32,000 nt of DNA from Halorhodospira halophila SL1 (GCF_000015585.1 NC_008789.1:2070001-2102000), one strand, 5' to 3'. Counted from the first letter of the stretch, positions 3,686-29,937 are shown. Numbers and translations: made by a program. The notes: generated from the letters alone by a model not told the origin.

Positions 3686-4164
3686 CGCAACGCCTCCCGA
3701 AAGGCGCGGAGTTCGTCTTCATCCACCGCCTGCTCTTCCAGTTCGGCCAGCGCCCGATAGTCCGCCATGTCGCGGTCACTCAGGCGCTCGCGCTGCTCCG
3801 GGGTCAGGCCACGGGCCGCAGCGGCACTGGCCACCTCCGACGAGCGGCGGCGTGAGTCGTCGATATCCGGCGCCTCACCATCGAGGATGCTGTCCCGCTC
3901 CATAGGCGGCTGCGTGGCAACCACCAGGCGCGACACCCAGCCCTCTTCCCCGTCGTGACGCACCCGATACCACACCCCCTCGGAGGCCAGCTGTTCCAGT
4001 TCCGTGCCGCGGGGGACCCGCCTCACCACCTCGGCATCCAGGCTTGCCTCGGCGTAGACCTCGCCCTGCTCACTCTGGACGAAGAGCAAATCCTCCCCCG
4101 ACGCCGCGGAAGCGAGGACCAGACCGAGCGGGAGGATCAGCCAGTGCCACTGTGATCGCCTCAT
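3682..4164 (-). CDS. Secreted bacterial SH3 (SH3b) domain protein
   Basis: 160 aa with signal peptide MRRSQWHWLILPLGLVLASAASG. SH3b-like segment: VYAEASLDAEVVRRVPRGTELEQLASEGVWYRVRHDGEEGWVSRLVV. ATGA overlap with the cyclase stop (4161-4164). Confidence 0.75.
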   Translation of the reverse strand: MRRSQWHWLILPLGLVLASAASGEDLLFVQSEQGEVYAEASLDAEVVRRVPRGTELEQLASEGVWYRVRHDGEEGWVSRLVVATQPPMERDSILDGEAPDIDDSRRRSSEVASAAAARGLTPEQRERLSDRDMADYRALAELEEQAVDEDELRAFREALR

Positions 4165-10867: not shown

Positions 10868-11059
10868 TTGCGTTATGGACCCGGACCTGCCGCCGGCAGC
10901 GTGGCGCTGTTCTTGTTGGTGCTCTTCCTGCTGGCCACGCCGTTCACCGACTGGTGGATGGAGGCCCGGCCGCCGTGGTACGTCCCGTACCTCGGCTGGG
11001 CGGTGGTGATCGCATTGGGTGGCTGGTTGATCGAACGGGGAACCGGGCGTGACCTTTGA
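10868..11059 (+). CDS. Small 2-TM membrane protein preceding the SSS-kinase (CbrX-like position)
   Basis: TTG start in the ORF track; an in-frame GTG at 10901 is an alternative. Two hydrophobic helices (ALFLLVLFLLATPF and WAVVIALGGWLI). Its stop (11057-11059) overlaps the kinase GTG start at 11049 by 11 nt. A similar ORF precedes the second SSS-kinase. Confidence 0.45.
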   Translation: MRYGPGPAAGSVALFLLVLFLLATPFTDWWMEARPPWYVPYLGWAVVIALGGWLIERGTGRDL

Positions 11060-14011: not shown

Positions 14012-15382
14012 ATGGCCGACCTGCTGCTACTCGAGGACGAAGCCGTTATCCGCAAGGCCTTGGACCGGCTGCTGAGCCGTCACGGGTACAGCGTCCACCA
14101 GGCCGACTCCCTGGAGCAGGCCCAAGAGCGCTGGAACCTGGACGCCTTCGACCTGATCCTCGCGGATATGCGGCTGCCCGGCGAGCCCGGCACCGAGGCC
14201 ATCGGGCGCACCGCAGCGCCGGTGATCATCATGACCAGCTACGCCAGCGTGCAGTCGGCGGTGGAGGCGATGCGCCAGGGGGCAGCCGACTACATCGCCA
14301 AGCCCTTTGACCACGACGAACTGTTGCTGCTCGTCGAACGCACCCTCAAGGAGGGCCGCCTGCAGCGGCAGAATGCGGCGCTGAAGGCCCATATCGAGCG
14401 CGATTACCCGGTCACCGGGATTGTCGGCAACTGCGAGGCGATGCAGAAGGTCTTCGAGCGCATCCGCAAGGTCGCCCCGACCGACACCTCGGTCCTGATC
14501 CTGGGCGAATCGGGCACCGGCAAGGAGCTGGTGGCCCGGGCGTTACACGAGCAAAGCGAGCGCCACGAGGGTCCGCTGGTGGCGGTCAACTGCGCGGCGA
14601 TCCCCGACGGGCTGATCGAGGCGGAGCTCTTCGGCCATGAGCGGGGCGCATTCACCGGGGCCGTGGGCGCCCGCGCCGGGCTGGTGGAATCCGCCGACGG
14701 CGGCACCCTGTTCCTTGACGAGATCGGCGAACTGCCTCAGCAGGCGCAGGGGCGACTGCTGCGCGTGCTGCAGGAGGGGGAGATCCGGCGCATCGGTTCG
14801 ACCCACGCCCGACGGGTCAACATCCGCCTGGTGGCCGCCACCCACCGCGACCTCAAGAGCCTCGCCAGCGCCGGTGAGTTCCGCGAGGATCTGTTCTTCC
14901 GCATCAACGTCATGGAGATCCGCCTGCCCCCGGTCCGCGAACGCGAGGCGGACATCCCGGAACTCGCGCGCTTCCTGCTCGAAAAGGCGTGCCAAAGGCT
15001 CAACCGCGCACCCCTGGAGCTCTCCCGGGCGGCCATCGACGCCATGACGGCCTACCCGTGGCCCGGCAACGTGCGCGAGATGGAGAACACCATCGAGCGG
15101 GCCGTAATCCTCAGCGAGGGCAGCACCATCTCTCCGGACATGCTGGGCCTGCCGGCCGGCGAAAGCGCCCCGTCCGGCACCACGAGCGGCCCCACCGCCG
15201 AGGCCGACGCAGGCCCGCGTCAGGACCTGTCCCTGGAGGACTATTTCCGCCAGTATGTGCTTACCCATCAGGACCACATGACGGAGACCGCCCTGGCCCG
15301 TGGGCTGGGCATCAGCCGCAAGGCGCTGTGGGAGAAACGGCAGCGCCACGGGATCCCGCGGCCGGGTAACAACCGGACCTAA
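14012..15382 (+). CDS. NtrC-family sigma54-dependent response regulator, CbrB-like
   Basis: 456 aa. Receiver domain (LILADMRLPG, IIMTSY, IAKPF). AAA+ domain with Walker A GESGTGKE and the sigma54-contact motif GAFTGA. C-terminal Fis-type HTH (LARGLGISRKALWEKRQRHGI). Starts 5 nt after the kinase stop. Confidence 0.92.
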   Translation: MADLLLLEDEAVIRKALDRLLSRHGYSVHQADSLEQAQERWNLDAFDLILADMRLPGEPGTEAIGRTAAPVIIMTSYASVQSAVEAMRQGAADYIAKPFDHDELLLLVERTLKEGRLQRQNAALKAHIERDYPVTGIVGNCEAMQKVFERIRKVAPTDTSVLILGESGTGKELVARALHEQSERHEGPLVAVNCAAIPDGLIEAELFGHERGAFTGAVGARAGLVESADGGTLFLDEIGELPQQAQGRLLRVLQEGEIRRIGSTHARRVNIRLVAATHRDLKSLASAGEFREDLFFRINVMEIRLPPVREREADIPELARFLLEKACQRLNRAPLELSRAAIDAMTAYPWPGNVREMENTIERAVILSEGSTISPDMLGLPAGESAPSGTTSGPTAEADAGPRQDLSLEDYFRQYVLTHQDHMTETALARGLGISRKALWEKRQRHGIPRPGNNRT

Positions 15383-15435
15383 CGTGTTACCTTTCGACAC
15401 ACCTGGAAGCGACGGGACGTGCAACCTCGTAACAC
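15364..15435. promoter_or_regulatory. Cluster of TGTTACC/GGTAACA half-sites upstream of acs (candidate enhancer-binding-protein sites)
   Basis: GGTAACA at 15365-15371, TGTTACC at 15385-15391, GTAACAC at 15429-15435. GTGTTAC (15384-15390) and GTAACAC form a 7-bp inverted repeat with a 38-nt spacer. The same heptamer recurs at 21329-21370. Confidence 0.4.
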
Positions 15436-15549: not shown

Positions 15550-17487
<1,938 letters not shown>

Positions 17488-17947: not shown

Positions 17948-18547
17948 CTAATCGGGGCGCTGGGTGTAGGCCCTCTGCTGGCTGTCTTTTTCCGGGTCGG
18001 AGAGCTTACGCTCATCTTCCGGCAGCGCCAGCTGCTCCTCGAGGTAGTCAGCGCGTTCCGAGATGCTCGGCTGGCCGTCCGGTCCCATGTGGAAGAAGCG
18101 GGTCAACCACCCCGGGCCGTCATCCACCGCCTCGTCCAGTTCCGCCGCCTTACGGTAGTCCGCAAGCGCCTGCTCGTGTTCACCGAGCCGGTCGTAGGCG
18201 ATCCCGCGGTTGGCGTAGGCGCCGGCGAACTCCGGATCGATCAGTTCGATGAACCGGTCGTACACGTGGATGGCGCGTTCCAGCTCGCCTAGCTCAAGCA
18301 GCGTCGTGGCCTTGCCCAGGTGAGCGTAACGGTGCTCCGGCGCCTCCTCCAGCGCCCGGGTGTACTGCTCCAGGGCGCGATCGTAGCGCCGATCCTGGAG
18401 GGCGCGATCGCCGGCGATGGTCTTGACATCGCCCGGCCCCCGATCCGGTGCCACCCCCTGATACAGGGCGTAGCCCAGCGGCAGGAGCGCCGCCACGATG
18501 GCGATGGCCACCCAGGTCCGGTACCCCCGCTCGGTAATCTTGATCAT
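17948..18547 (-). CDS. Membrane-anchored TPR-repeat protein
   Basis: 199 aa with an N-terminal TM (WVAIAIVAALLPLGYALY). TPR-like repeats: YDRALEQYTRALEEAPEH.., AIHVYDRFIELIDPEFAGAYANRGIAYDRLGEHEQALADYRKAAELD. ATGA overlap with the upstream small gene (18544-18547). Confidence 0.8.
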   Translation of the reverse strand: MIKITERGYRTWVAIAIVAALLPLGYALYQGVAPDRGPGDVKTIAGDRALQDRRYDRALEQYTRALEEAPEHRYAHLGKATTLLELGELERAIHVYDRFIELIDPEFAGAYANRGIAYDRLGEHEQALADYRKAAELDEAVDDGPGWLTRFFHMGPDGQPSISERADYLEEQLALPEDERKLSDPEKDSQQRAYTQRPD

Positions 18548-18780
18548 TGCAACACACCTAACGTTGCCGAATTCAGGAAGAAAGAGAACACCGGCAGGAT
18601 GACGGTGGCCAGCACACGGGCCCGCCGTTTCTGCCCGGCCAGTTCCTCTTCAGACAACTCCCGGTCCAGTTTCCGCTGCAGCCGCCGCACGCTCAACACC
18701 CAGATCCACTGACTGACCGGATAGAAGAGAATGACGACCAGCAGAACGACCCAGAACAGGAATTGGGTTGTGGGATCCAT
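18544..18780 (-). CDS. Small (78 aa) 2-TM membrane protein
   Basis: MDPTTQFLFWVVLLVVILFYPVSQWIWVLSV, then a charged linker, then VLATVILPVFSFFL. Translationally coupled to the TPR gene and sits downstream of the symporter. Confidence 0.6.
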   Translation of the reverse strand: MDPTTQFLFWVVLLVVILFYPVSQWIWVLSVRRLQRKLDRELSEEELAGQKRRARVLATVILPVFSFFLNSATLGVLQ

Positions 18781-18878: not shown

Positions 18879-21170
18879 TTACGGACGGCTCACGTCGTAG
18901 CGGGCCTTGCCCTGATCCTCGTCGAAGAGGACCTCGATTTCCTTCTCGGGCACGGTGCTCATCTCACACTTGTAGCAGGTGAACCACATCATGTAGATAC
19001 CGATCACCCACCACAGCAGCTGCCAGACCACGATGGACGGCAGGCCGAGGAACCACCAGGTATCGGGGTTGGTCGGATCACCGAAGACCCAGTTGCCCAG
19101 CAGGGCGCCCGGACCGAAGGCGAAGATCCACCAGCCGATGACGATGGTGAAGGCGATCGGGATCAGGTGGCGCTTCTCGGCCGGCAGTGACGCATGCTCG
19201 CGAAGGAAGGCGTGCACCGTCATGCGGTGATCGTAGTCTTCCTTGTTGTTCTGCGTCATCGCCGAGACGACCACGGCCACCAGGGCGTTAAGCACCAGGC
19301 CCCACCCGGCAGAGTGGATGGTCAGCGGCCAACGGCCCCAGGGCACGTCGACGCCCGCCGCCGCCAGCAGGTCGATGCCGATGTTCTCGGTCATCAGCAC
19401 GGCAACGATGCCAACGCCCAGCCCCCAGACCACACCCGGACGGGTAAGCCAGGGGAAGAAGCAGATGGCGGCCAGCGGCACCCACATCTGCGTACCCATG
19501 GCGGTGGCCAGACCGCCGAGCAGCACCAGGGCGTCGGTGGTCACCGTCGCCACGGTCAGGGCCGCAAGCACCAGGATGGTGACGAAGACCCGGCCCGCCA
19601 CCACCTGGGCCTGGTTGCTGGCACTGGGCATGATGTAGCGACGCAGCAGGTCACGGGTAAACATGCCACTGGTGGTGGACATGTACGCCGCGCCGGTGGA
19701 CTGCATGGCCGCCAGGGCACAGACCGCCAGCAGGGCCGCCAGCCACGGCGCCGCCGCCTCCAGCATGTTCAGCAGCTGGGGCACAAGCTCGCTGTCACCG
19801 CCCCGATCCAGGGACAGGTCCAGCCAGGCCCGCTCGAGATCGCCCGGCAGAGCTGCCAGCCAGTCCGGATCCATGTTGCGCGGATCCTCACCGATGGACA
19901 GCGCCGCCAGACCGGCCGCGATGACCTGCTCGACCTCCTGACGACTGAGTTCCGGATGCTCGGCCTGGATCATGCCGCGCTGCATGACCGCGGTGGGTAC
20001 CAGCGGGCTGAGATCCATGCCGTCCAGGGACTCGCCGGCGTCCAGGCGCTCGCGCACCTCGTCCACCAGCCCTTGGTGCTCCTCGGAGGCCTCGAACAGC
20101 GTCCGGTACTCGGCCAGCTGCTCACCGTGCTCGTCGGAGAAGATGTCCTTGGCGAACTCGGTGTTGGCCCCCAGGCCGTGGGTGGCCATCGCCTGGATCG
20201 CCAGGAAGGTGAACATCAGGGCACCGACGCCCACCGGGGACATCCAGGTCTGTTGCGGCGCAAACGGACGCGGGTTCTGGTTCGAGAACGCCCACATGGT
20301 GAACGACGGGGAGGCCATGATGCCGCCCAGCGCCAGCATGTAGGTGATGTTCATGACGCCGGTCCAGACACCGCCCTGGGCGTTGGCCGCGGCACCGACC
20401 CACTGGATGGCACCCGGGATGGCGACATAGCCACTGGCACCGCTATCCCCCGGCACCATGCCCGGCGAGACCTCACCCGCACCACCGGTGGCGGTCTCCC
20501 ACTCGACCAGGCCGGCAATCACGTGCGTGAAGTTGTTCCAGCCGCCGATGTAGTAGAGCGTCACGACGCCGATGACGAAGATGCCCACAATGAGCAAAAC
20601 AGCCTGCGCCGCGTCCACGTACGCCACGGCGCGCAGACCGCCCGAGGCCACGTAGAACAGCACCACCGCGGACAGCAGCCACATGCCGATCTCGACGCCC
20701 ATCCAGCCGTCGGTGAGCACGTGGAACAGGAAGCCCGAGGCGCGCAGCTGAATCCCCAGGTACGGCACTGCGAAGATCAGCGCCACAATGAGGATCAGGA
20801 TGCGGATCGAGTCCGTCCGGAAGTAGTCCGCGAACATCTCGCCCGGCGTGACGTAACCCCAACGCTTGCCAATCATCCATTGGCGCTTGAGGAACAGCAT
20901 GCCGGTGAACGGGATGCAGATGGAGTAGAACGAGGCGTAGGCGTACTGCAGGCCGTCCTCGTAGATCAGGCCCGGGTGTCCTACGAACGTCCACCCTGAG
21001 AACGATGTGGCCGTTGCCGCCAGTATGAAGACCCACATACTGACGGAGCGCCCGGCCACGAAGTAGTCGCTGGCTGTGCGCGACCAAAGGTATCCCTTGA
21101 TACCCCAGAAGATGCAGTAGCCCCAGTACAGGCCTACAAACACCAACAGCCATATGGCCATAGCTGACAT
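18879..21170 (-). CDS. Sodium:solute symporter (SSS) family transporter, atypically long (763 aa); likely monocarboxylate/acetate permease by context
   Basis: SSS-type N-terminus (YFVAGRSVSMWVFILAATATSFSGWTFVGHPG; GGLRAVAYVDAAQA) and a late SSS helix (ALAAMQSTGAAYMSTTSG). Has a ~140-aa hydrophilic acidic insertion (aa ~335-474) and a ~120-aa C-terminal extension with 2 extra TM helices. RBS GAGGGGGAG lies upstream. The substrate is inferred only from the acs/sigma54 context. Confidence 0.9.
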   Translation of the reverse strand: MSAMAIWLLVFVGLYWGYCIFWGIKGYLWSRTASDYFVAGRSVSMWVFILAATATSFSGWTFVGHPGLIYEDGLQYAYASFYSICIPFTGMLFLKRQWMIGKRWGYVTPGEMFADYFRTDSIRILILIVALIFAVPYLGIQLRASGFLFHVLTDGWMGVEIGMWLLSAVVLFYVASGGLRAVAYVDAAQAVLLIVGIFVIGVVTLYYIGGWNNFTHVIAGLVEWETATGGAGEVSPGMVPGDSGASGYVAIPGAIQWVGAAANAQGGVWTGVMNITYMLALGGIMASPSFTMWAFSNQNPRPFAPQQTWMSPVGVGALMFTFLAIQAMATHGLGANTEFAKDIFSDEHGEQLAEYRTLFEASEEHQGLVDEVRERLDAGESLDGMDLSPLVPTAVMQRGMIQAEHPELSRQEVEQVIAAGLAALSIGEDPRNMDPDWLAALPGDLERAWLDLSLDRGGDSELVPQLLNMLEAAAPWLAALLAVCALAAMQSTGAAYMSTTSGMFTRDLLRRYIMPSASNQAQVVAGRVFVTILVLAALTVATVTTDALVLLGGLATAMGTQMWVPLAAICFFPWLTRPGVVWGLGVGIVAVLMTENIGIDLLAAAGVDVPWGRWPLTIHSAGWGLVLNALVAVVVSAMTQNNKEDYDHRMTVHAFLREHASLPAEKRHLIPIAFTIVIGWWIFAFGPGALLGNWVFGDPTNPDTWWFLGLPSIVVWQLLWWVIGIYMMWFTCYKCEMSTVPEKEIEVLFDEDQGKARYDVSRP

Positions 21171-21240
21171 TCGTGTCTCCCCCTCACATTTCTTGAGTTA
21201 TGAGGTGTTGCAATCCCCCCGCAGGGGTCGGCGGTCTCTA

Positions 21241-21256
21241 GCGAAAACCGTGCCAC
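21241..21256 (-). promoter_or_regulatory. Sigma54 (-24/-12) promoter for the symporter operon
   Basis: The minus strand reads TGGCACGGTTTTCGCT, i.e. TGGCAC-N5-TCGC, with GG and GC at canonical spacing (consensus TGGCACG-N4-TTGCW). The -12 GC lies ~70 nt upstream of ATG 21170. An NtrC-type activator is encoded in the window. Confidence 0.7.
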
Positions 21257-21317: not shown

Positions 21318-21372
21318 GCGTTACCTTCGGTAACAAGCCACGTTCCCAGGGGTAACACCAGTGGGTAACACC
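21318..21372. promoter_or_regulatory. Upstream activator-site cluster in the divergent intergenic region (TGTTACC-type motifs)
   Basis: Palindrome GTTACC-ttc-GGTAAC at 21320-21334. A 10-nt direct repeat GGGTAACACC sits at 21350-21359 and 21363-21372. The cluster lies 64-116 nt upstream of the -24 GG of the minus-strand sigma54 promoter. Confidence 0.55.
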
Positions 21373-21447
21373 CGCGCAGCGGTTTGTCTCTGCCGCCGGG
21401 GTTGGGCATGATCAAAGCGAGCAGACCCCCGCACAGGAGAAGCGCCG

Positions 21448-23370
21448 ATGGCCGCCGGAGCGAACAGCCCCGGGGAGCAAAACCCGTCCGCCGACACGCT
21501 GGACGTCGGTCGCCTGGCCGAGAACGAGGTCTTCCGCAACCTTGATGAACAGTTACTGCGCGCACTGCTGGCGCGTGGCAGGGTTCATCACCTGGAAAGC
21601 GGCGACGTGCTCTTCCACCTCGGCGACCCGGACCGCGACACCCTCTATATTCTCTACGAGGGGCGGGTCGAGCTGCGCGACGCCCACAACGTGGTCACCG
21701 TCCGCGAGCCGGTGACCCTGCTCGGGCTGTCGAGCTACTTCGACGACGAGCCCTACACCCTCACCGCCCGGGCCACCCGGCCGTCGCTGGTGGTCGGCAT
21801 CCCCTTCGAGGATGTGCGCACCCTCGAGCGCGAACACCCGCCCCTGGCCGACGCCTTGAGCCGCATTATCGCCGACCGGATCCGCGCCAACTCCTGGCAG
21901 CATCGCGGCAGCCCCACCGGTGCCCTGTCGCAGCCGGCGCGCACCGCCATGTCCACGCCGCTGACCTACCAGCAGCCGGACTGCAGCCTGGGCGAAGCCT
22001 TCCGCTTCATGGACGAACGCAAGATCGGCAGCATCGGCGTGCTCGACGAGGCCGGCGGTCTGGTCGGCCTGGCCACGCTGCGCACCATCGGTCGCGCCAT
22101 CTTCACCCGGGGGCTGACCCCCGAAGCCTCCATCGTCGAGGCCGCCGAGCGGATCACCGCCATCGGCCCCGAGACGCCGCTATCCGAGGCCAAGGACATC
22201 CAGGCGCGGGAGAACGTCAAGTACCTGGTGGTCATGGACGGCACACGGCCGGTGGGCATGCTCTCGCAGTCGAACATGCTCCAGGCGATCATGGCCCAGC
22301 AGACCGTCATGCGCGAGCGCATCAACCGGGCCACCAGCATGTCGGAGCTGCAGCAACTCGCCGGCGAGGTGGGTTACGTGGCGCGCGAAGCCTGGAACAA
22401 CAACCGCGAGGCCAGCCGCGCCACCTATCTACTGAGCGAATTCCACCTGCAGCTCCAGCGCCGCTGCATCGACCTGGTGGTGGATGAACTCCGCAGCGAA
22501 GGCTGGGGCGAGGCGCCGCGTCCCTACGCCCTGCTGATCCTCGGTTCGCTGGCGCGCCGCGAGGCGCTGATCAACCCGGACCAGGACAACGCCATGATCA
22601 TCGGCGACTGTCCCCGGGGCGGCGACGACCCCCGCCCCCTGGACGAAACCGAGGCGGAGTGGTTCGCCACCTTCGCCGAGCGAGTGAACATCCGCCTCGA
22701 CGAGCTCGGCTACGAGTGGTGCAAGGGCGATATCATGGCCCGCAACCCGGAGTACCGTCACCCGCTGGAGCGCTGGCGGCAACAGTTCCGCTACATGGCC
22801 CGGCACCCGAACAGCACCTCGGCGCGCTGGTGCAACATCTTCCTCGACTTCGAGCTGCTCTACGGCGAACAGGGCCTGGTGACCGAGCTCTGGGACTTCG
22901 TCCTGGCCACCCTCAAGGAACAGCCCAAGCTATTGCGCTTTATGACCGGTGATGACGCCGAGGGCCAGCCGGCGGTGGGGCTGTTCAACCGGCTGATCCG
23001 CTCGCGCCGCGGCGACAATGGCAACGGCTGCGTGGACATCAAGCGCAAGGGGCTGCGCATCATCGCCAACGGGGCGCGCATCTATGCCCTTTCGGCCAGT
23101 GTGCGCGAAACCAACACCGTGGCCCGGCTCAAGGGCCTTCGCCGCGAGGGCGTGCTGACCAGCGAGATGGTCGACTCGGTCCTCACCGGCCACGAAGAGC
23201 TGCTCGATCTGCTGCTGACCCACCAGATCGAACAGCATCAGGCGGGCACCGCTCCGGACAAGTACATCGACCCCGAGGAGCTGGACGACCTGACCCGCCA
23301 GTCCCTGGCGACGAGCATGAAAGCGGTCAAGCGCTTCCAGGACCGCGTACAAGGCGTCTTCGGCCTTTAG
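21448..23370 (+). CDS. cNMP-binding + tandem CBS + DUF294-type putative nucleotidyltransferase (with DUF294_C-like substrate-binding domain)
   Basis: 640 aa. Cyclic-nucleotide-binding-like N-domain (VFRNLDEQLLRALLARGRVHHLESGDVLFHLGDP..LYILYEGRVEL). Two CBS motifs (..KIGSIGVLDEAGGLVGLATLRTI.. and ..VKYLVVMDGTRPVGMLSQSNML). Pol-beta-type NTase signature LGSLARREALINPDQDNAMII (GS at 22543-22548, DQD at 22579-22587). Confidence 0.9.
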   Translation: MAAGANSPGEQNPSADTLDVGRLAENEVFRNLDEQLLRALLARGRVHHLESGDVLFHLGDPDRDTLYILYEGRVELRDAHNVVTVREPVTLLGLSSYFDDEPYTLTARATRPSLVVGIPFEDVRTLEREHPPLADALSRIIADRIRANSWQHRGSPTGALSQPARTAMSTPLTYQQPDCSLGEAFRFMDERKIGSIGVLDEAGGLVGLATLRTIGRAIFTRGLTPEASIVEAAERITAIGPETPLSEAKDIQARENVKYLVVMDGTRPVGMLSQSNMLQAIMAQQTVMRERINRATSMSELQQLAGEVGYVAREAWNNNREASRATYLLSEFHLQLQRRCIDLVVDELRSEGWGEAPRPYALLILGSLARREALINPDQDNAMIIGDCPRGGDDPRPLDETEAEWFATFAERVNIRLDELGYEWCKGDIMARNPEYRHPLERWRQQFRYMARHPNSTSARWCNIFLDFELLYGEQGLVTELWDFVLATLKEQPKLLRFMTGDDAEGQPAVGLFNRLIRSRRGDNGNGCVDIKRKGLRIIANGARIYALSASVRETNTVARLKGLRREGVLTSEMVDSVLTGHEELLDLLLTHQIEQHQAGTAPDKYIDPEELDDLTRQSLATSMKAVKRFQDRVQGVFGL

Positions 23371-23453
23371 AATAAGGGCGTGCGCCGCCGACGCCAGGCG
23401 TGTCGACGGCGACCGAGATCCGGCCCAATAACCGAGAGGAGGCGGCCACGAAG

Positions 23454-23831
23454 ATGAGCCAAGAGATCCTGATCGTGGACGATGAGGACAACATCGTCCT
23501 GTCCCTGGAGTTCCTGATGAAGCAGGCCGGTTTCGAGGTGCGCACCGCCCAGGACGGCGAGCAGGCCATCGAAGCCCTCGAGGCACGCATCCCGGACCTG
23601 GTCCTGCTCGACGTGATGATGCCCCGCAAGGACGGCTACGAGGTCTGCCAGGAGATCCGTCAGCGCAGCGAGTGGGCGCACCTGCCGGTGGTCATGCTGA
23701 CCGCCAAGGGACGTGACGTGGAGCGCGAGAAAGGACTGGCCATGGGCGCCGACGACTACATCACCAAACCGTTCTCAACCCAGGAGGTGGTGGAAACGGT
23801 CCAGCACATCCTCGCCAACGGGGCACAGTAA
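23454..23831 (+). CDS. Stand-alone response-regulator receiver (CheY-like)
   Basis: 125 aa from ATG 23454, with RBS GAGGAGG at 23436-23442. [13 protein letters not shown].., phospho-acceptor context [14 protein letters not shown], plus VVMLTAKG and YITKPF. No output domain. The ORF track's GTG 23400 start adds 18 non-conserved residues. Confidence 0.9.
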
Positions 23832-25954
23832 TGGCCAGCGCCATGGCACGTCGCCGGTTGAAATTCTGGGCACCGGCGCTGGTCCTGCTGCTGCTGATCG
23901 CCGCTGCCCTGGCCACCGTCGGCTACCTGACCCTGGGACACGTTCCCGAGGGACCGGAGCGCGCCAATGCGCTGCTCGCCCTGGGAGGCGCCGGCGCGGT
24001 GCTCATCGGCGCCACCGTGGCCATCTGGATCCTCCTGGACGCCACCGTCATCCGCCCCCTGGGCGCGCTGGCCCGCGGGGCGTCGATCATGGCCCACTCG
24101 AACCCGGCCCACGAACTGGAGATCCCGAGCATGCACCTGCTCGGCGAGCTCCCGGAGAGCCTACAGACGCTGGGCAGCAACCTCTATGAGACCCGGCGCG
24201 AAGTGGCCAAGGCCCTGGGCTCCGGCGCCCAGGGGGTCGAGAACCAGAAGACGCGGCTGGAGATCGTTCTGCGCGAGATCCAGCAGGGGGTCATCGTCTG
24301 CGACACCGAGGGCCGGGTGCTGCTCTACAACCCGGCCGCCGGCGAGATCCTGCGCAGTGATGCACTGGGTCTGGGGCGCTCCATCTACGACGTGCTGGCC
24401 CGCTCGGCGGTGGACCACACCCTGGAGATGCTCCAACACCGCCTGGCCATCGCCGACGACCACACCGTGGCGGAAAACCGCGCCGAATTCGTCTGCGCGA
24501 CGGTGGATGACGGCGCCCTGCTGCACTGCCGGATGAGCCTGCTCCCCTCCTCCAGCCCCCTGCGCTCGGGGTTCGTGCTGACCATCGAGGACATCACCCG
24601 CAAGATTGAAGGCGTAGCCCGCCGCGACCACGCCCTGCGCACCGCCGTGGAGGCCCTGCGCCCGCCGCTGGCGAACCTGCGCGCCGCCGCCGAGAGCCTC
24701 GGCCAGGGCGACGAGGCCATGGCCCGCGAGCAGCGCCAGTCGTTCGAGACGCTCATGGTCCACGAAAGCCGGGAGCTGAGCCGACGCTTCGAGCGCATGG
24801 CCCGGGAGACCCACCGACTCGTCTCGGCCCCCTGGACCATGGCGGACATCAGCAGCGCGGACCTATTGGCCAGCGTCCTGCGCCGCCACCCGGAGGGATT
24901 GCCGAAGGTCGAGGTGGTCGGCATCCCGCTGTGGATGCACGCCGAGAGCCACTCCATCGGCCTGGTACTGGAGCACATGCTGCGCCACCTGCGCGGCGAA
25001 CTCGGCATCGAGCAGATCCGCGCCGAGCCCCTGATGGGGGATCAGCGGGTGTATCTGGATCTCTCCTGGCAGGGCCCACCGATCCCGCCGGATCAGCTCG
25101 AGACGTGGCTGGACGAGGAGCTGCCCGAGGCCACCGGGCAACTGACCCCGCGCGGGGTGCTGGAGCGCCACGACAGCGTCGCCTGGAGCCAGATACAACC
25201 TCGCTGCGAAGGACGCGCCCTGCTGCGCATCCCGGTGCCGCTATCGCGGCGCCAGTGGGAGCAGCCCGGCGAGCGCCTGCCACCGCGGCCGGAGTTCTAC
25301 GACTTCTCGCTGGCCGACCAGGCCGCCGATCAGGGCGAGCTGCTCGATCGCCCCCTGGCCCAGCTATCATTCGTCATCTTCGATACCGAGACCACCGGAC
25401 TGGCCCCCTCGGAAGGCGACGAGATCATCTCCATCGCCGGGGTACGCATGGTCAATGGCCGCATCCTCGAGGGCGAGTGCTTCGAGCAGCTGGTCAACCC
25501 CGGGCGGCCGATCCCCAAAGCGTCGATCAAGTTCCACGGCATCCGCGACGAGATGGTCGCCGACAAGCCGGGGATCGCCACGGTGCTGCCGCAGTTCAGC
25601 GCCTTCGTCGGCGATTCCGTGCTGGTCGCCCATAACGCCGCCTTCGACATGAAGTTCATCCGCCTCAAGGAAGGTCAGTGCGGCCTGAAGTTCGAAAACC
25701 CGGTGCTCGACACCCTGCTGCTGTCGGTCTTCCTGCACGATCACACCCCTGAGCACACCCTGGAGGCCATCGCCAACCGCCTGGGGGTGGAGATCAGCGG
25801 CCGCCACACGGCGCTGGGCGACACCCTGGTCACCGGCGAGATCTTCGCGCAGATGCTGCCGCTGCTCGAGGAGCGCGGCGTCACCACCCTGCGCGATGCG
25901 ATCAACGCCTCCGAACAGATGGTCGAGGTCCGCAAGCAGCAGGCCCAGTTCTAA
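23831..25954 (+). CDS. Membrane sensor (2 TM-HAMP-PAS-degenerate histidine-kinase-like core) fused to a DEDDh 3'-5' exonuclease (DnaQ/RNase T-like)
   Basis: 707 aa. The start overlaps the receiver stop (TAATG at 23829-23833). PAS: [32 protein letters not shown]. DHp-like helix [19 protein letters not shown] lacks His. The exonuclease domain spans aa 512-707 (nt ~25364-25951) with Exo[11 protein letters not shown], Exo[14 protein letters not shown] and Exo[15 protein letters not shown]. Confidence 0.88.
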
Positions 25955-25955
25955 C

Positions 25956-26153
25956 GTGACGGGACGGCGCAGTGAACGACTCATCGCCCTGGCCCTGCTG
26001 GGGATGGTGCTGTTCAACTATCCGGTGCTATCGCTGTTCGCAGTGGACGGCAAGGTGCTGGGGATGCCGGTGTTCTACGCCTACTTCTTCACCGTCTGGG
26101 CCGGCCTGATCGCGGCGGTGGCCCGGCTCAACCGGGCCACCGCCCAGGGGTAA
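25956..26153 (+). CDS. Small 2-TM membrane protein preceding the second SSS-kinase (CbrX-like position)
   Basis: GTG at 25956, 1 nt after the exonuclease stop and in frame with listed ORF 25896..26153. VTGRRSERLIALALLGMVLFNYPVLSLF..GMPVFYAYFFTVWAGLIAAVARL gives two hydrophobic helices. It ends 5 nt before the kinase GTG at 26159. Confidence 0.5.
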   Translation: MTGRRSERLIALALLGMVLFNYPVLSLFAVDGKVLGMPVFYAYFFTVWAGLIAAVARLNRATAQG

Positions 26154-26158
26154 GCGCG

Positions 26159-28957
26159 GTGCTGCCGGCGTGGACCATCCTGCTGGTTTCGGCGCTCTAC
26201 GTCGGGCTCCTGTTCGCCGTCGCCTATACGGCGGACAAGCTCGGCGATCGCGGCCTGTCGCTGGTCAACAACCCGTACGTCTACACCCTGTCCATCGCCG
26301 TCTACTGCACGGCCTGGACCTTCTACGGCAGCGTCGGCCTGGCGGCCGAACAAGGGCTGGCCTTCCTGACCATCTACCTCGGCCCGACCCTGATGGCCAT
26401 CGTCTGGTGGGTGGTGCTGCGCAAGATCGTGCGCATCAGCAAGCTCTACCGGCTCACCTCCATCGCCGATTTCATCGCCGCCCGTTACGGCAAGAGCATG
26501 CTCCTCGGCGGCCTGGCGGCATTCATCGCCCTAGTCGGCACCACCCCGTACATCGCGCTGCAACTCCAGGCGGTCTCCTCGAGCTTCGACGTCCTGCTCC
26601 ATTTCCCGGACATGGAGGCGGTCCAGGCGGGCAGTGCCGGGCTTCTGGACGACAAGGCGCTCTACGTGGCGGCCCTCCTGGCCCTGTTCACCATCCTCTT
26701 CGGCACCCGCCACATCGACGCCACCGAACGCCTGGAGGGCATGGTGGTGGCGGTGGCCTTCGAGTCGGTGGTCAAGCTGGTCGCCTTCCTGGCGGTCGGG
26801 ATCTTCGTCACCTTCGTCCTCTTTGCCGGGCCCGTGGAGCTCTTCCGCGAGGCAGCGGCCTCGCCGGCCATCGCGGAGCTCGGCCTGCTCACCGGACTAC
26901 CCGGCGGCTACCAGAACTGGATCGCCATGCTGGCGCTCTCGGCCCTGGCGATCCTCTTCCTGCCGCGGCAATGGCAGGTCAGCGTGGTGGAGAACGTCAA
27001 CGAGGACCACATCCGCACGGCCTCCTGGCTCTTCCCGCTCTATCTACTGGTCATCAACCTGTTCGTCCTGCCCGTGGCCCTGGCGGGGCTGCTGTTCTTC
27101 GGCGACGAGATCCCCGGCGACGACTACGTGCTGGCCCTGCCCCTGGCCGTCGATCAGGGGCTGCTCGGCCTGCTGGTCTACATCGGCGGCTTCTCGGCGG
27201 CCACCGGCATGGTGATCGTCGCCACCATCGCCGTGGCCATCATGGTCAGCAATGACATTGTGACCCCGGCGCTGCTGCGCCTGCGCCGCTTTCACGCCCG
27301 GGGGCGCCACGATCTGTCGAGGCTGATCGTCACCATCCGGCGCCTGGTGATCTGCGCGATCCTCGCCCTCGGCTACGCCTACTACCTGCTCATCGCCGAC
27401 ACCCACGCCCTGGTCTCCATCGGGCTGATCTCCTTTGCCGCGGTGGCGCAGTTCGCGCCGGCGGTCCTGCTCGGGCTGTTCTGGAAGGGGGCGAGCCGGC
27501 GCGGCGCCCTGGCCGGGCTGGTGGCCGGGTTCCTGCTCTGGGCGTACACCCTGCTGCTGCCTTCGCTGGCCGAGGCGGGGCTGCTCGGCGAGCGGCTGCT
27601 CACCGACGGCCCGTGGGGCATTGAATGGCTGCACCCCTACGGCCTGTTCGGTATGGAGGGCATGGACCCCATCGCCCACGCCTTCTTCTGGACCCTGCTG
27701 GCCAACCTCGGGCTGCTCCTCGGTGTCTCGCTGTTCGATCGCCAGGGCGACATGGAACGCATCCAGGCCACGCTGTTCGTCGACGTCTTCCTGCGCTCGG
27801 AGCGCGACGCCCGCTTCTGGGAGGGCACCGCCACCGTCGGCGACTTGCAGGACCTGCTCGGCCGCTTCCTCGGCCCGGAGCGGGCCGCCGGGGTCATCCG
27901 TGAGTACGGCGCCCACCGCGGACGTCCGCTGGATGAGGCCGAGCAGGCACAGCCCGAGCTGGTCAATCAGGTCGAGCGCCTGCTCGCCGGCTCCATCGGC
28001 TCCGCCTCGGCCCGGGTGATGGTGGCCTCCATCGTCAAGGGCGAGGCGCTCTCCTACGAGGGGGTCATGGAGATCCTCGACGCCACCTCGCGGGCCATCG
28101 AGTACTCGCGGCGGCTGGAGGAGAAATCCCACGCCCTGGAGAGCGCCACCGAGGAGCTGCGCGCCGCCAACGAGCGGCTCAAGGAGCTGGACCAGCTCAA
28201 GGACGAGTTCGTCTCCATGGTCAGCCACGAGCTGCGCACGCCGCTGACCTCGATCCGCGCCTTCGGCGAGATCCTACTCAACAACCCGGAGATGGACGCC
28301 GATCAGCGCCGCGAGTTCCTGGAGGTGGTCGTCCGCGAGAGCGAGCGGCTGACCCGGCTGATCAACCAGGTACTGGACCTGTCCAAGATCGAGAGCGGCT
28401 CGGCCCAGTGGCAGCTGGAGGACGTGGATCTCTCGCGCCTGGCCCGGGAGGCGGCGGAGTCCACCCAGCAGCTGTTCACCGACCGGCAGACGCAGCTGCA
28501 CATCGAGATCGCCAGCGACGACAACGCCATCAAGGGCGATCCGGACCGCCTGATGCAACTGATCATCAACCTCCTGTCCAACGCCGCCAAGTTCACCGAG
28601 CCCGGCGAGGGGCAGGTGTGGCTGCGCCTGGAGAAGGGCCGCGGCGACACCCTGCGCCTGTCGGTCACGGATAACGGACCGGGGATCAGTGCCGAGGATC
28701 AGCGGCGGATCTTCGACAAGTTCCACCAGATCTCTCAGCAGCAGGCCGGCAAGCCCAAGGGCAGCGGCCTGGGGCTGGCCATCTGCCGGCTGATCGCCGA
28801 CGCCCACTGGGGCACGCTCTGGGTCGACAGCGAGCCCGGCGCCGGCGCCAGCTTCGTCTGCAAGCTGCCCCGCGCCGGCGGCGAGCACTGCAACGTCACC
28901 GGGTACGTGGCGTTCTCCGAGCGCGGCCCGGCACCCCCTGAGGAGGAGCCGTCGTGA
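26159..28957 (+). CDS. SSS(SLC5)-STAC sensor histidine kinase (CrbS/CbrA-type paralogue, no PAS or receiver seen)
   Basis: 932 aa. The N-terminus (MLPAWTILLVSALYVGLLFAVAYTADK) is paralogous to the kinase at 11049. STAC-like segment: ELVNQVERLLAGSIGSASARVMVASIVKG. A coiled coil follows, then H-box FVSMVSHELRTPLTSIRAF. ATPase boxes are NLLSNAAKFT, DNGPGIS and GSGLGLAICRLI. Confidence 0.9.
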   Translation: MLPAWTILLVSALYVGLLFAVAYTADKLGDRGLSLVNNPYVYTLSIAVYCTAWTFYGSVGLAAEQGLAFLTIYLGPTLMAIVWWVVLRKIVRISKLYRLTSIADFIAARYGKSMLLGGLAAFIALVGTTPYIALQLQAVSSSFDVLLHFPDMEAVQAGSAGLLDDKALYVAALLALFTILFGTRHIDATERLEGMVVAVAFESVVKLVAFLAVGIFVTFVLFAGPVELFREAAASPAIAELGLLTGLPGGYQNWIAMLALSALAILFLPRQWQVSVVENVNEDHIRTASWLFPLYLLVINLFVLPVALAGLLFFGDEIPGDDYVLALPLAVDQGLLGLLVYIGGFSAATGMVIVATIAVAIMVSNDIVTPALLRLRRFHARGRHDLSRLIVTIRRLVICAILALGYAYYLLIADTHALVSIGLISFAAVAQFAPAVLLGLFWKGASRRGALAGLVAGFLLWAYTLLLPSLAEAGLLGERLLTDGPWGIEWLHPYGLFGMEGMDPIAHAFFWTLLANLGLLLGVSLFDRQGDMERIQATLFVDVFLRSERDARFWEGTATVGDLQDLLGRFLGPERAAGVIREYGAHRGRPLDEAEQAQPELVNQVERLLAGSIGSASARVMVASIVKGEALSYEGVMEILDATSRAIEYSRRLEEKSHALESATEELRAANERLKELDQLKDEFVSMVSHELRTPLTSIRAFGEILLNNPEMDADQRREFLEVVVRESERLTRLINQVLDLSKIESGSAQWQLEDVDLSRLAREAAESTQQLFTDRQTQLHIEIASDDNAIKGDPDRLMQLIINLLSNAAKFTEPGEGQVWLRLEKGRGDTLRLSVTDNGPGISAEDQRRIFDKFHQISQQQAGKPKGSGLGLAICRLIADAHWGTLWVDSEPGAGASFVCKLPRAGGEHCNVTGYVAFSERGPAPPEEEPS

Positions 28958-29937
28958 CCCGCCCCGAGGCCGCCGCCTTCCGACCCGCCTGGTGGCTGCC
29001 CGGCCGCCACGCCCAGACCGTCTTCCCGGCGCTGCTGCGCACCCCGCCCCGGCCGCCGCTGACCCCGGAGGTCTTCGAACTGCCCGACGGCGACTTCCTG
29101 GAGCTGGCCTGGGGACCGCCCGGCCAGGGGCTCGCGATCATCGGCCACGGGCTCGGGGGGAGCAGCGACTCGGCCTACGTCCGCGGGGTGGTGGCCGAGC
29201 TGGCCCGACGCGGCATCGGCTCGGTGGTGATGCAGTCGCGGGGGGCCGGGCGGCACCCCAACCGCCATCGGCGTTCGTACCACGCGGCCGCCTGGGACGA
29301 TCTGGAGGCCGTGGTCGCCGGCCTGGCCGAGCGCGACCCCCACCGCCCCCTGGCGGTGGTGGGTTTCTCGCTGAGCGGCTCGATGCTGCTCAACTGGCTG
29401 GCCGAGCGCGGTGACACCCCGGTGGCACGGGCGGTGGCCGTCTCGGTGCCGTTCGAGCTGGACCGCTGCGCCGACGCCCTGGAGCGGGGCTTCGCGCGTG
29501 TCTACCAGGCGTACCTGCTGCGCCGGTTGCGGGTCATGGCCGCGAACAAGTTTGCCGCCCGGGACGACAGCCCCGTCCCGGCGGAGCGGATCCGGCGCAT
29601 CCGCCGCCTGCGCGAGTTCGACAACCTGCTCACCGCGCCCCTGCACGGCTTCCGCGACAGCGCCGACTACTACCGGCGCGCCAGCTGCCGGCAGCGGCTC
29701 AGCGCCATCCGCCAGCCGACCGCCCTCCTCCACGCCGCGGACGACCCCTTCGTGCCGCCGGAGACGATCGCGGAGACCGCCGAGCTCGGCCCGGGTGTCA
29801 CCCTGGAGCTGCAGCGCCACGGCGGGCACGTCGGTTTCGTCGAGGGGCGCCAGCCCGGACGCCCGGGCTACTGGCTGGACGGGCGGATTGCCGACCTCCT
29901 CGAGGCGGCCCTGGGCAACCCGCCCGCCGGCGGCTAG
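28954..29937 (+). CDS. Alpha/beta-fold hydrolase, YheT/ABHD1-3-like
   Basis: 327 aa. The GTG start overlaps the kinase stop (GTGA at 28954-28957). N-terminal WWLPGRHAQTVFPALL is typical of the YheT family. Nucleophile elbow GFSLSGS, acid HAADDPFVP, His GGHVGF. Confidence 0.85.
   Translation: MTRPEAAAFRPAWWLPGRHAQTVFPALLRTPPRPPLTPEVFELPDGDFLELAWGPPGQGLAIIGHGLGGSSDSAYVRGVVAELARRGIGSVVMQSRGAGRHPNRHRRSYHAAAWDDLEAVVAGLAERDPHRPLAVVGFSLSGSMLLNWLAERGDTPVARAVAVSVPFELDRCADALERGFARVYQAYLLRRLRVMAANKFAARDDSPVPAERIRRIRRLREFDNLLTAPLHGFRDSADYYRRASCRQRLSAIRQPTALLHAADDPFVPPETIAETAELGPGVTLELQRHGGHVGFVEGRQPGRPGYWLDGRIADLLEAALGNPPAGG

Follow-up and report, generated by a model that had tools for sequence, protein, structure and literature searches.

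A conserved candidate signalling cassette in Halorhodospira halophila linking an SLC5-type histidine kinase and a lone receiver to a predicted pseudo-kinase with a DEDDh exonuclease domain

A six-gene operon and its conserved core

We analyzed a 32,000-nucleotide stretch of the genome of Halorhodospira halophila SL1 (GCF_000015585.1, NC_008789.1:2070001-2102000), referred to here as the window, and in particular an operon of six co-directional open reading frames (ORFs) tightly packed on the plus strand at positions 21448-29937, counted from the first nucleotide of the window. Four of these genes, encoding a small membrane peptide, an SLC5-type histidine kinase, a stand-alone receiver, and a predicted pseudo-histidine-kinase fused to a DEDDh exonuclease, constitute a cassette core that is conserved across phyla, with a DUF294 nucleotidyltransferase (NTase) as a frequent partner. 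An earlier note on this DNA had proposed the six ORFs and the junctions between them, and all are present in the sequence:

21448..23370, plus strand: DUF294 nucleotidyltransferase, 640 residues, with a CRP-type effector domain (non-canonical), a CBS pair, the NTase domain, and a helical DUF294_C domain
23454..23831, plus strand: stand-alone receiver, 125 residues (Response_reg, 111 bits)
23831..25954, plus strand: predicted membrane-anchored pseudo-histidine-kinase with a DEDDh 3'-5' exonuclease domain, 707 residues (assigned from an AlphaFold 2 [AF2] model, Foldseek, and alignments)
25956..26153, plus strand: conserved peptide with two transmembrane helices, 65 residues, of a family found across 48 loci and placed like CbrX
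26159..28957, plus strand: SLC5-type transceptor histidine kinase, non-hybrid, 932 residues (HisKA, HATPase_c, and SLC5 matches)
28954..29937, plus strand: YheT-type alpha/beta hydrolase (Abhydrolase_1; NF008218, 277 bits versus a cut-off of 267), starting in a GTGA overlap

The NTase gene stops at 23370, and a gap of 83 nucleotides (nt) separates it from the receiver ATG at 23454, which is preceded by a strong ribosome-binding site, GAGAGGAGG. The receiver stop and the exonuclease start overlap in TAATG (23829-23833), the exonuclease TAA (25952-25954) is followed one base later by the GTG of the small ORF at 25956, 5 nt lie between the stop of that ORF at 26153 and the kinase GTG at 26159, and the kinase and hydrolase genes overlap in GTGA (28954-28957); the start/stop overlaps suggest translational coupling. 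The hydrolase gene stops at 29937, and a convergent gene for a TonB-dependent receptor ends 13 nt further on. A scan of the operon interior for sigma-70 promoters and terminators found nothing convincing and no internal terminator, an Rfam scan of the whole window returned no RNA family, and the predicted fold of the 83-nt gap is no more stable than its shuffles (z = -0.7). The G+C content of the window is uniform at about 67%.

We surveyed the gene neighbourhood in 87 fetched loci, probed by tblastn with the window proteins, and the counts out of 56 refer to the loci whose flanks reach 5 kb or more on both sides. The loci were chosen via the exonuclease, and a gene call is a tblastn match above threshold; tblastn was used rather than gene-order strings because naive ORF calling gave many antisense ORFs in high-G+C loci. 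Counts of conserved motifs and residues are based on alignments. The receiver lies directly upstream of the exonuclease gene in 51 of the 56 loci, an SLC5-type histidine kinase adjoins that gene on the same strand in 50, and both are present in 49, so that the synteny looked for in other genomes proved strong and extends across phyla. The order is peptide, kinase, receiver, exonuclease in 35 of the 50 kinase-adjacent loci, and that of the window in the other 15. Recurrence of the core in several phyla puts this arrangement far beyond chance.

A DUF294 gene is found within 10 kb in 42 of the 56 loci, at varying positions and on either strand, and 10 loci have two tandem copies; the alpha/beta hydrolase is found in none. 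The conserved core comprises four genes (small peptide, SLC5 kinase, receiver, and exonuclease) plus the frequent NTase partner, which is the looser, movable member. The hydrolase gene follows the kinase in Halorhodospira only (it is found in Halorhodospira neutriphila, and not in Methylonatrum or Alkalilimnicola) and is therefore a local passenger outside the conserved cassette. The six-gene system first proposed thus stands as an operon, but not as a conserved unit of six.

The cassette occurs in Gamma-, Beta-, and Alphaproteobacteria, Magnetococcales, Nitrospirota, Acidobacteriota, and Chloroflexi. Searches with the exonuclease protein matched at least 472 species in the genome collection, spanning these groups and Desulfosarcina; more than 100 proteins share at least 50% identity with it over the full length, full-length matches were also obtained for at least 150 clusters (at 50% identity), and 2232 clusters match at E < 1e-30. 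The window protein is 95% identical to a protein from a metagenome-assembled genome (MAG) of H. halophila. Either acs or an SSS symporter gene lies within 10 kb in 22 of the 56 loci (acs in 17); a symporter of the VC_2705/DUF4212 type (TIGR03648, 774 bits) is encoded on the same strand in 13, and the DUF4212 small subunit (TIGR03647) was detected in 15. In Rhodocyclaceae the genes are arranged, for example, as acs, peptide, kinase, receiver, exonuclease, NTase(-NTase), symporter. In Competibacter the four-gene core stands without a DUF294 gene within 10 kb. The super-locus of the window recurs in its entirety in Alkalilimnicola and Methylonatrum: CbrA-like kinase, NtrC-type regulator, acs, TPR protein, small peptide, symporter, NTase, receiver, exonuclease, peptide, and kinase.

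The survey also turned up several variants. In H. neutriphila (locus L088, 12126-14121) the kinase after the exonuclease gene has just 346 residues (HisKA and HATPase_c), without the SLC5 domain; the small peptide gene is missing there too and the hydrolase gene comes next as in the window, a natural truncation of the transceptor. The tandem DUF294 copies include one in Alkalilimnicola (L001, 8858-9985) and others downstream of the exonuclease gene (L052, L054, L063, L070, and L078); the second Alkalilimnicola copy is without sensor domains, recalling the two opposing NTase domains of GlnE. A few loci (for example, L060, 13845-14507) have an extra short exonuclease of about 220 residues that is PRK07740-like, and Alkalilimnicola encodes a second paralogue of the exonuclease that has neither receiver nor kinase.

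Predicted properties of the cassette proteins

Profile searches recovered the domains that had been named for the six proteins (cNMP_binding, two CBS, DUF294, DUF294_C, Response_reg, PAS, RNase_T, HisKA, HATPase_c, and the hydrolase domain). In the AF2 model of the exonuclease protein (pLDDT 78), two transmembrane helices are followed by HAMP-like helices, a PAS domain (residues 150-254), a hairpin like the dimerization and histidine phosphotransfer (DHp) domain of histidine kinases (255-331), an alpha/beta domain like their catalytic and ATP-binding (CA) domain (338-471), and the exonuclease domain (510-680). Foldseek matched the first two thirds to the full-length histidine kinases WalK, YF1, VicK, and ThkA (E = 6e-16 to 5e-11) and the last third to the exonuclease domains of PolC, DnaQ, ExoX, and DinG, with a TM-score of at least 0.8 normalised to DnaQ domains. 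Pfam finds RNase_T at 132 bits, whereas the HAMP domain named for the protein is not significant (E = 1.4). The five DEDDh residues (D518, E520, D606, H659, and D664) are invariant in all 85 homologues; the intact exonuclease claimed for this gene is thus borne out in fold and in catalytic residues. In sequence the domain lies nearest to the PolC/DnaQ DNA proofreading exonucleases and is 38% identical to a PolC exonuclease domain.

The residues of a working kinase are absent from the rest of the protein. E274 stands opposite the phospho-His of the partner kinase, in a hairpin 30% identical to the DHp of that kinase; among the 85 homologues this position holds Glu in 65, Gln in five, Asp in four, Lys in three, Thr in three, Arg in two, Ile in one, and Phe in one, and His in none. 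Residues 338-471 of the window protein contain no DxGxG, GxGxG, or NxxxN motif (no N, G1, or G2 box). To judge by its residues and its predicted structure, the protein is a pseudo-kinase with an intact ('live') exonuclease. What had been described as a sensor scaffold does carry the sensor-type PAS domain, but is not a plain scaffold; it reads as a degenerate histidine kinase paralogous to the partner kinase.

A hidden Markov model of the pseudo-DHp scored every one of the 57 cassette kinases at 35-57 bits and nothing else in the loci above 11.5 bits; with a similar profile, PDB kinases, among them HK853, WalK, and EnvZ, did not exceed 19 bits. The DHp family consensus of the partner kinases, PLTSIRAFSEILLDDPDMDLAQRQRFLGII, is strikingly like that of the pseudo-DHp. 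By this specificity and this likeness, the DHp of the pseudo-kinase is a specific paralogue of that in the partner kinase, from which it evidently descends and which it still resembles. The DHp is the surface by which kinases recognise their receiver, and the paralogy would therefore give the receiver a concrete docking target. The extreme C-terminus of the exonuclease protein (25930-25951, ..VRKQQAQF) is kept among gammaproteobacterial members, and most others end in a shorter ..R..Y; it may be a docking tail.

With 46-74% identity between phyla, the receiver is unusually well conserved, helix alpha-1 included. Residues D9, D10, D53, and K105 are invariant in the 76 cassette receivers, and position 83 is Thr in 66 (the window protein among them, with T83) and Ser in 10. 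In the kinase, H690, N808, D838/G840/G842, and G868/G870/G872 (the H, N, G1, and G2 boxes) are invariant in 67 of 67 homologues. Taken with the 85 of 85 for the DEDDh residues and the 76 of 76 for the receiver, this invariance means that, as far as alignments tell, the chemistry of all three proteins is under purifying selection.

Kinase residues 7-472 match the SLC5 part of PDB chain 10ed_A (a 606-residue chain described as 'histidine kinase') at 250 bits (E = 2.4e-73), and the kinase shares 34% identity over 673 residues with the other transporter-kinase in the window, which is CbrA-like (described below). The Pfam SSF model reaches 21.4 bits, under its cut-off of 22.8; of the SSF and HAMP assignments made earlier, the SLC5 nature of the kinase therefore stands on the structural match, and the HAMP domain finds no Pfam support. 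Residues 480-675, labelled STAC in the earlier note, give no Pfam or PDB sequence match; they align with the same part of the CbrA-like paralogue and are conserved in the family. By homology, the protein is a transporter-like sensor of the CbrA/CrbS class with an intact kinase core. It ends after HATPase_c, and the sole regulator-type partner in the operon is the 125-residue output-less receiver, as in 49 of the 56 loci, in agreement with the claim that the kinase has no DNA-binding regulator beside it and that its only local partner is this receiver.

Homologues of the 65-residue peptide were found in 48 loci from several phyla. In nearly all of these the peptide gene either overlaps the kinase gene by up to about 10 nt or precedes it by up to about 47 nt (one lies 110 nt upstream), and the family shares the motif RLxALFLLGxxLLNYPLLSLF..GIPxLYxYLFxxW. 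The peptide and its family profile have no significant match in Pfam or PDB; matches to SatP (E = 0.2) and DUF3311 (E = 0.57) were treated as chance. An hhalign comparison with the 63-residue ORF that precedes the CbrA-like kinase gave a weak match (73% probability, E = 3e-5). CbrX binds the SLC5 domain of CbrA (PMC13488458), and by analogy the 65-residue peptide is a probable small subunit of the SLC5 kinase.

The NTase protein matches DUF294 (PF03445) at 134 bits, DUF294_C (PF10335) at 143 bits, and cNMP_binding at 46 bits, together with two CBS domains. G366, S367, D378, and D380 are invariant in 28 homologues and D467 is kept in 27 of 28; the pol-beta-type fold was recovered and its GS...DxD motif is invariant, as expected of the intact enzyme that had been described. 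In structure searches with the AF2 model (pLDDT 86.6), the best NTase-fold matches are GlnE (3k7d and 1v4a; both NTase domains) and DrrA (6yx5, bound to Rab8a), with the catalytic and helical domains superposing. Among the top 50 structural matches listed there is no CCA-adding enzyme, poly(A) polymerase, or cGAS, and a sequence search against solved NTases gave no significant match to the protein; the likeness to a GlnE/DrrA-type protein AMPylase is one of predicted fold only.

As to the gating of this enzyme by cyclic nucleoside monophosphates (cNMPs) and CBS ligands, as first described, Pfam finds both kinds of domain, but the canonical cNMP contacts are missing. In the CRP-type domain (residues 20-150; 21448-21900) the 'GE...PRTS' of GlxR aligns with 'GL...PYTL', so that the Glu and Arg that hold cAMP in GlxR/CRP are replaced by Leu (25 of 26 homologues) and Tyr (24 of 27). 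The label 'cNMP-gated' is therefore unsafe, and the ligand is probably neither cAMP nor cGMP. A CHASE2-sensor adenylate/guanylate cyclase is encoded on the minus strand at 4161-6098, 15 kb upstream, and might supply cyclic nucleotide locally, should the NTase respond to it.

Neighbouring acetate genes and related gene pairs

A CbrA/CbrB-like sigma-54 system adjoins acs 6 kb upstream of the operon, and a symporter operon runs divergently from the NTase gene. The features of this region are:

10868-11059: CbrX-like ORF, 63 residues, overlapping the start of the CbrA-like kinase gene
11049-14006: CbrA-like SLC5-PAS kinase
14012-15382: NtrC-type sigma-54 activator
15365-15391: candidate GTAACA pair upstream of acs, GGTAACA-N13-TGTTACC
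15550-17487: acs
17948-18547, minus strand: TPR protein, symporter operon
18544-18780, minus strand: 78-residue peptide with two transmembrane helices, symporter operon
18879..21170, minus strand: divergent SSS symporter, 763 residues (SSF match and partial TIGR03648)
21240..21255, minus strand: predicted sigma-54-like promoter, TGGCACGGTTTTCGCT, with one mismatch to TGGCAC-N5-TTGCW (a consensus match only)
21319..21370, no strand assigned: candidate CbrB-type half-sites, cGTTAC then three direct GTAACA, in the divergent promoter region

There are five copies of the heptamer GGTAACA in the window, where 0.69 would be expected; each lies either a short way upstream of acs or in the 277 nt from which the symporter and NTase genes diverge, which suggests one regulon; the CbrB consensus is TGTTAC-N12-14-GTAACA-N15-19-GTAACA (PMC8871633). 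The sigma-54-like element sits 70 nt upstream of the symporter ATG. This clustering, the sigma-54-like element, and the adjacent CbrAB-like genes make a transcriptional layer probable, one that probably controls acs and the symporter and possibly this operon. A sigma-54 candidate for the operon itself (GG-N10-GC, about 21405-21418, picked by eye) is too weak to claim. The cassette's own output has no DNA-binding domain, so the proposal that the output is enzymatic rather than transcriptional holds for the cassette proper, although the CbrAB-like layer with its GTAACA boxes is close by. According to a 2022 review, CbrAB is unique to Pseudomonadaceae (PMC8871633); the set of CbrX-like ORF, CbrA-like kinase, NtrC-type activator, and acs is also found in Alkalilimnicola, Methylonatrum, and H. 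neutriphila.

In these same three organisms, too, the trio of symporter, 78-residue peptide, and TPR protein adjoins the cassette, and the SSS symporter is likely to be the functional target or the context of the cassette. The symporter has an acidic soluble insertion of about 140 residues (roughly 330-470) between its transporter halves, a candidate regulatory target.

A DUF294/exonuclease pair of shorter form is known from the literature as an uncharacterised CrbS/R target. CrbS/R (MxtR/ErdR) directly targets PA3233/PA3232, PP_0354/PP_0353, and Pflu5625, which depend on it strongly, and acetate and propionate induce the pair together with actP (PMC9765439; PMC5715377), in agreement with the statement in the earlier note that such pairs recur by acs/actP and CrbS-type kinases with no function assigned. 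Deletions of the pair have no effect on 20 mM acetate (PMC9927547; bioRxiv 10.64898/2026.09.07.749794). Growth on propionate is weaker after deletion of PP_0353 or PP_0354, and growth on pyruvate is impaired by deletion of PP_0353 as it is by deletion of actP-I or yjcH (bioRxiv 10.64898/2026.09.07.749794). In Shewanella and P. stutzeri, the COG2905 gene is cofit with the adjacent DUF4212/SSS symporter (bioRxiv 10.1101/072470, section 42). The literature searched, which runs to the September 2026 preprint, gives no biochemical function for the pair (PMC9927547; bioRxiv 10.64898/2026.09.07.749794), and its role by acs/actP is an acknowledged open question in papers of 2017, 2022, and 2026. For the long pseudo-kinase form, its receiver and kinase partners, and thus for the long cassette, we found no earlier description, subscription-only papers lying outside the search.

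Proposed mechanism and competing explanations

Each part of the cassette has a counterpart among known systems. The kinase resembles those of CbrA/CbrB, CrbS/CrbR (MxtR/ErdR), and RpuS/RpuR in its SLC5 N-terminal domain and intact HisKA/HATPase core, CbrA in having an upstream small peptide like cbrX, and CrbS/R and RpuS/R in its carbon-source (acetate/pyruvate) context (PMC9100948, PMC5715377). Unlike all of these it is without a paired DNA-binding response regulator, its partners being the lone receiver and the pseudo-kinase-exonuclease; it is not a hybrid with a C-terminal receiver, as CrbS is, and is without the PAS domain of CbrA. The pair PP_0354/PP_0353 (PA3233/PA3232, Pflu5625; DUF294 plus a short RNase_T-type protein) has the same two families side by side, next to or co-regulated with actP/acs (PMC9927547; PMC9765439; bioRxiv 10.64898/2026.09.07.749794; bioRxiv 10.1101/072470), and its phenotypes resemble those of transporter mutants; this likeness is one of family and context. 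In the window, by contrast, the exonuclease is the C-terminal domain of a 707-residue membrane-anchored pseudo-kinase with its own receiver and kinase, and we therefore propose a control that is post-translational as well as transcriptional.

In Caulobacter, DivL, a histidine kinase-like protein without the phospho-His, reads the single-domain receiver DivK, which is phosphorylated by a different, active kinase. The cassette similarly pairs a pseudo-kinase lacking the phospho-His with a stand-alone receiver, and docking of the two is proposed by analogy; DivL, however, has Tyr at the His position and controls CckA, whereas the cassette protein has Glu, Asp, or Gln there and a fused exonuclease as output. 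The modelled DUF294 and DUF294_C domains superpose best on the NTase domains of GlnE and on DrrA, and the protein recalls GlnE, GlnD, and DrrA/SidD in its metabolic ligand sensing, as do the tandem DUF294 genes in 10 of the 56 loci the two NTase domains of GlnE; it is not a member of those families at the sequence level. A further parallel is the mycobacterial cAMP-dependent acetyltransferase (Rv0998/MSMEG_5458) that acts on acetyl-CoA synthetase, likewise a CRP-type domain fused to a (putatively) protein-modifying enzyme in an acetate context; its cNMP domain (4avb, 4orf) is among the structural matches of the DUF294 protein. Its catalytic domain is a GNAT rather than an NTase, and the DUF294 protein lacks the cAMP-contacting Glu and Arg.

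We hold, with a little better than even confidence, that the locus encodes a signalling cassette with an enzymatic output, in which the kinase phosphorylates the receiver, the phosphorylated receiver docks on the pseudo-kinase, and the docking gates the exonuclease, which together with the NTase tunes the uptake and activation of monocarboxylates. The SLC5-type kinase, with its CbrX-placed peptide, would sense a monocarboxylate such as acetate, pyruvate, or propionate and phosphorylate the stand-alone receiver, as the strict adjacency and intact phosphorylation residues of the two suggest. The receiver would then dock on the DHp-like helices of the membrane-anchored pseudo-kinase, to judge by the anatomy of that protein; unable to autophosphorylate, the pseudo-kinase would read the state of the receiver 'in reverse', as DivL reads DivK. 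The case for phosphotransfer and docking is built from adjacency, translational coupling, intact residues, and DHp paralogy. Bound to its receiver, the pseudo-kinase, with its PAS domain, would turn the fused DEDDh exonuclease on or off, and the exonuclease would oppose the GlnE/DrrA-like DUF294 NTase, itself presumably integrating a CBS-bound adenine nucleotide and the ligand of its CRP-type domain. The net effect would be that monocarboxylate uptake and assimilation are tuned beneath transcriptional control by the CbrAB-like sigma-54 system.

As to the substrate, we tentatively suggest that the NTase writes a nucleotidyl mark on a protein of uptake or activation (the SSS symporter, Acs, or the transceptor) and that the exonuclease removes it, a reading that we favour on account of the GlnE/DrrA fold, the membrane location, and the transporter-like phenotypes, and yet put at well below even chances. 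Unlikely as a whole is the full statement that the phosphorylated receiver, via the dead kinase, switches a DEDDh eraser of a GlnE-like DUF294 mark, on a protein or an RNA 3' end, belonging to the monocarboxylate machinery. Several points weigh against these proposals. We know of no DEDDh enzyme that removes a nucleotidyl group from a protein; the nucleotidylylation erasers known to us are an NTase domain (by phosphorolysis), an HD domain, and a PP2C-like enzyme, never a DEDDh exonuclease. The nearness of the exonuclease domain to the proofreading domains of PolC/DnaQ speaks for nucleic acid as the substrate. In a quarter of the loci no DUF294 gene lies within 10 kb, which suggests that the NTase may be a non-obligate partner, and just about 40% of loci lie near acs or a symporter gene. 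Selection of the loci through the exonuclease makes all co-occurrence figures conditional on its presence, and the gene calls depend on tblastn thresholds. Finally, the deletion phenotypes of the short form are mild (PMC9927547).

The same upstream signalling by kinase, receiver, and pseudo-kinase could instead set the 3' end of an RNA, the DUF294 enzyme tailing a specific RNA (symporter or acs mRNA, a small RNA, or a tRNA) and the relay-gated exonuclease trimming it, so that RNA stability or function sets transporter expression. DEDDh enzymes work on nucleic-acid 3' ends, as the identity of 38% to a PolC domain would lead one to expect here, and turnover of the tRNA CCA end pairs RNase T (a DEDDh enzyme) with the CCA-adding enzyme (a pol-beta-type NTase). 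Since DEDDh enzymes act on nucleic acids and none is known to act on protein adducts, we rate this unlikely explanation nearly as highly as the protein mark. Against it, the NTase-fold matches of the DUF294 model in the listed top 50 are the protein AMPylases GlnE and DrrA only, neither the window nor the 83-nt gap yielded an Rfam family or a significantly structured RNA, and a membrane anchor would be unusual for an RNA-end trimmer. Less probable again is a nucleotide second messenger, a linear or cyclic (oligo)nucleotide made by the NTase and degraded by the exonuclease, with the phosphorelay setting its lifetime. The pol-beta fold does include signal makers (cGAS/CD-NTases and OAS), Orn-type DEDDh enzymes degrade dinucleotides (for example, Orn on pGpG), and the NTase bears two ligand-binding domains; but the surveyed loci have no conserved receptor or effector, the predicted fold is GlnE/DrrA-like with a large helical 'substrate-binding' domain, the cNMP-type domain lacks the canonical nucleotide contacts, and PADLOC matched at the domain level only, with no CD-NTase or Pycsar cyclase core. 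We consider it very improbable. The same PADLOC matches, to a generic Cas-associated DEDDh model and to the cNMP-type domain of Pycsar effectors, are what an anti-phage module of NTase and nuclease with sensor domains would have in its favour. No core protein of a defence system was matched, the context is one of acs, SSS symporters, and a CbrAB-like system conserved in the chromosomes of many phyla, and the G+C content is uniform with no mobile-element context seen. With its matches confined to single domains we reject this explanation, which retains a scarcely perceptible probability.

The genes might also be loose neighbours, the kinase and receiver forming an ordinary branch (a phosphate sink, or a connector to a distant regulator) and the exonuclease and NTase serving separate DNA or RNA housekeeping, with nothing in common beyond co-regulation. 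The NTase is indeed variable in position and strand and absent within 10 kb in 14 of the 56 loci, the second Alkalilimnicola exonuclease does without receiver and kinase, and the mild effects of deleting the short pair (PMC9927547) fit as well. Set against this, the adjacency of receiver (51 of 56) and kinase (50 of 56) is kept across phyla and through changes of gene order, the pseudo-kinase DHp is by all signs a specific paralogue of the partner DHp, and the start/stop overlaps suggest translational coupling; we think the explanation improbable.

If the exonuclease is gated through the receiver as we propose, exonucleases would join the outputs of two-component systems, and the cassette would be a second case in which a receiver signals 'in reverse' to a pseudo-kinase. 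The long form supplies what the short form lacks, namely an input (the SLC5 transceptor kinase), a transmitter (the lone receiver), and a docking module (the pseudo-kinase), and with these three defined the pathway can be reconstituted and tested in vitro. Should the writer/eraser pairing of NTase and exonuclease also hold, it would amount to a new cycle of reversible modification that controls the acetate switch in many environmental bacteria, among them the polyphosphate- and glycogen-accumulating organisms of wastewater plants. The survey loci include MAGs of Accumulibacter, Competibacter, Dechloromonas, Propionivibrio, and Zoogloea (L043, L046, L054, L065, L077, L035, and L037), genera that scavenge acetate in activated sludge, a process that underlies biological phosphorus removal.

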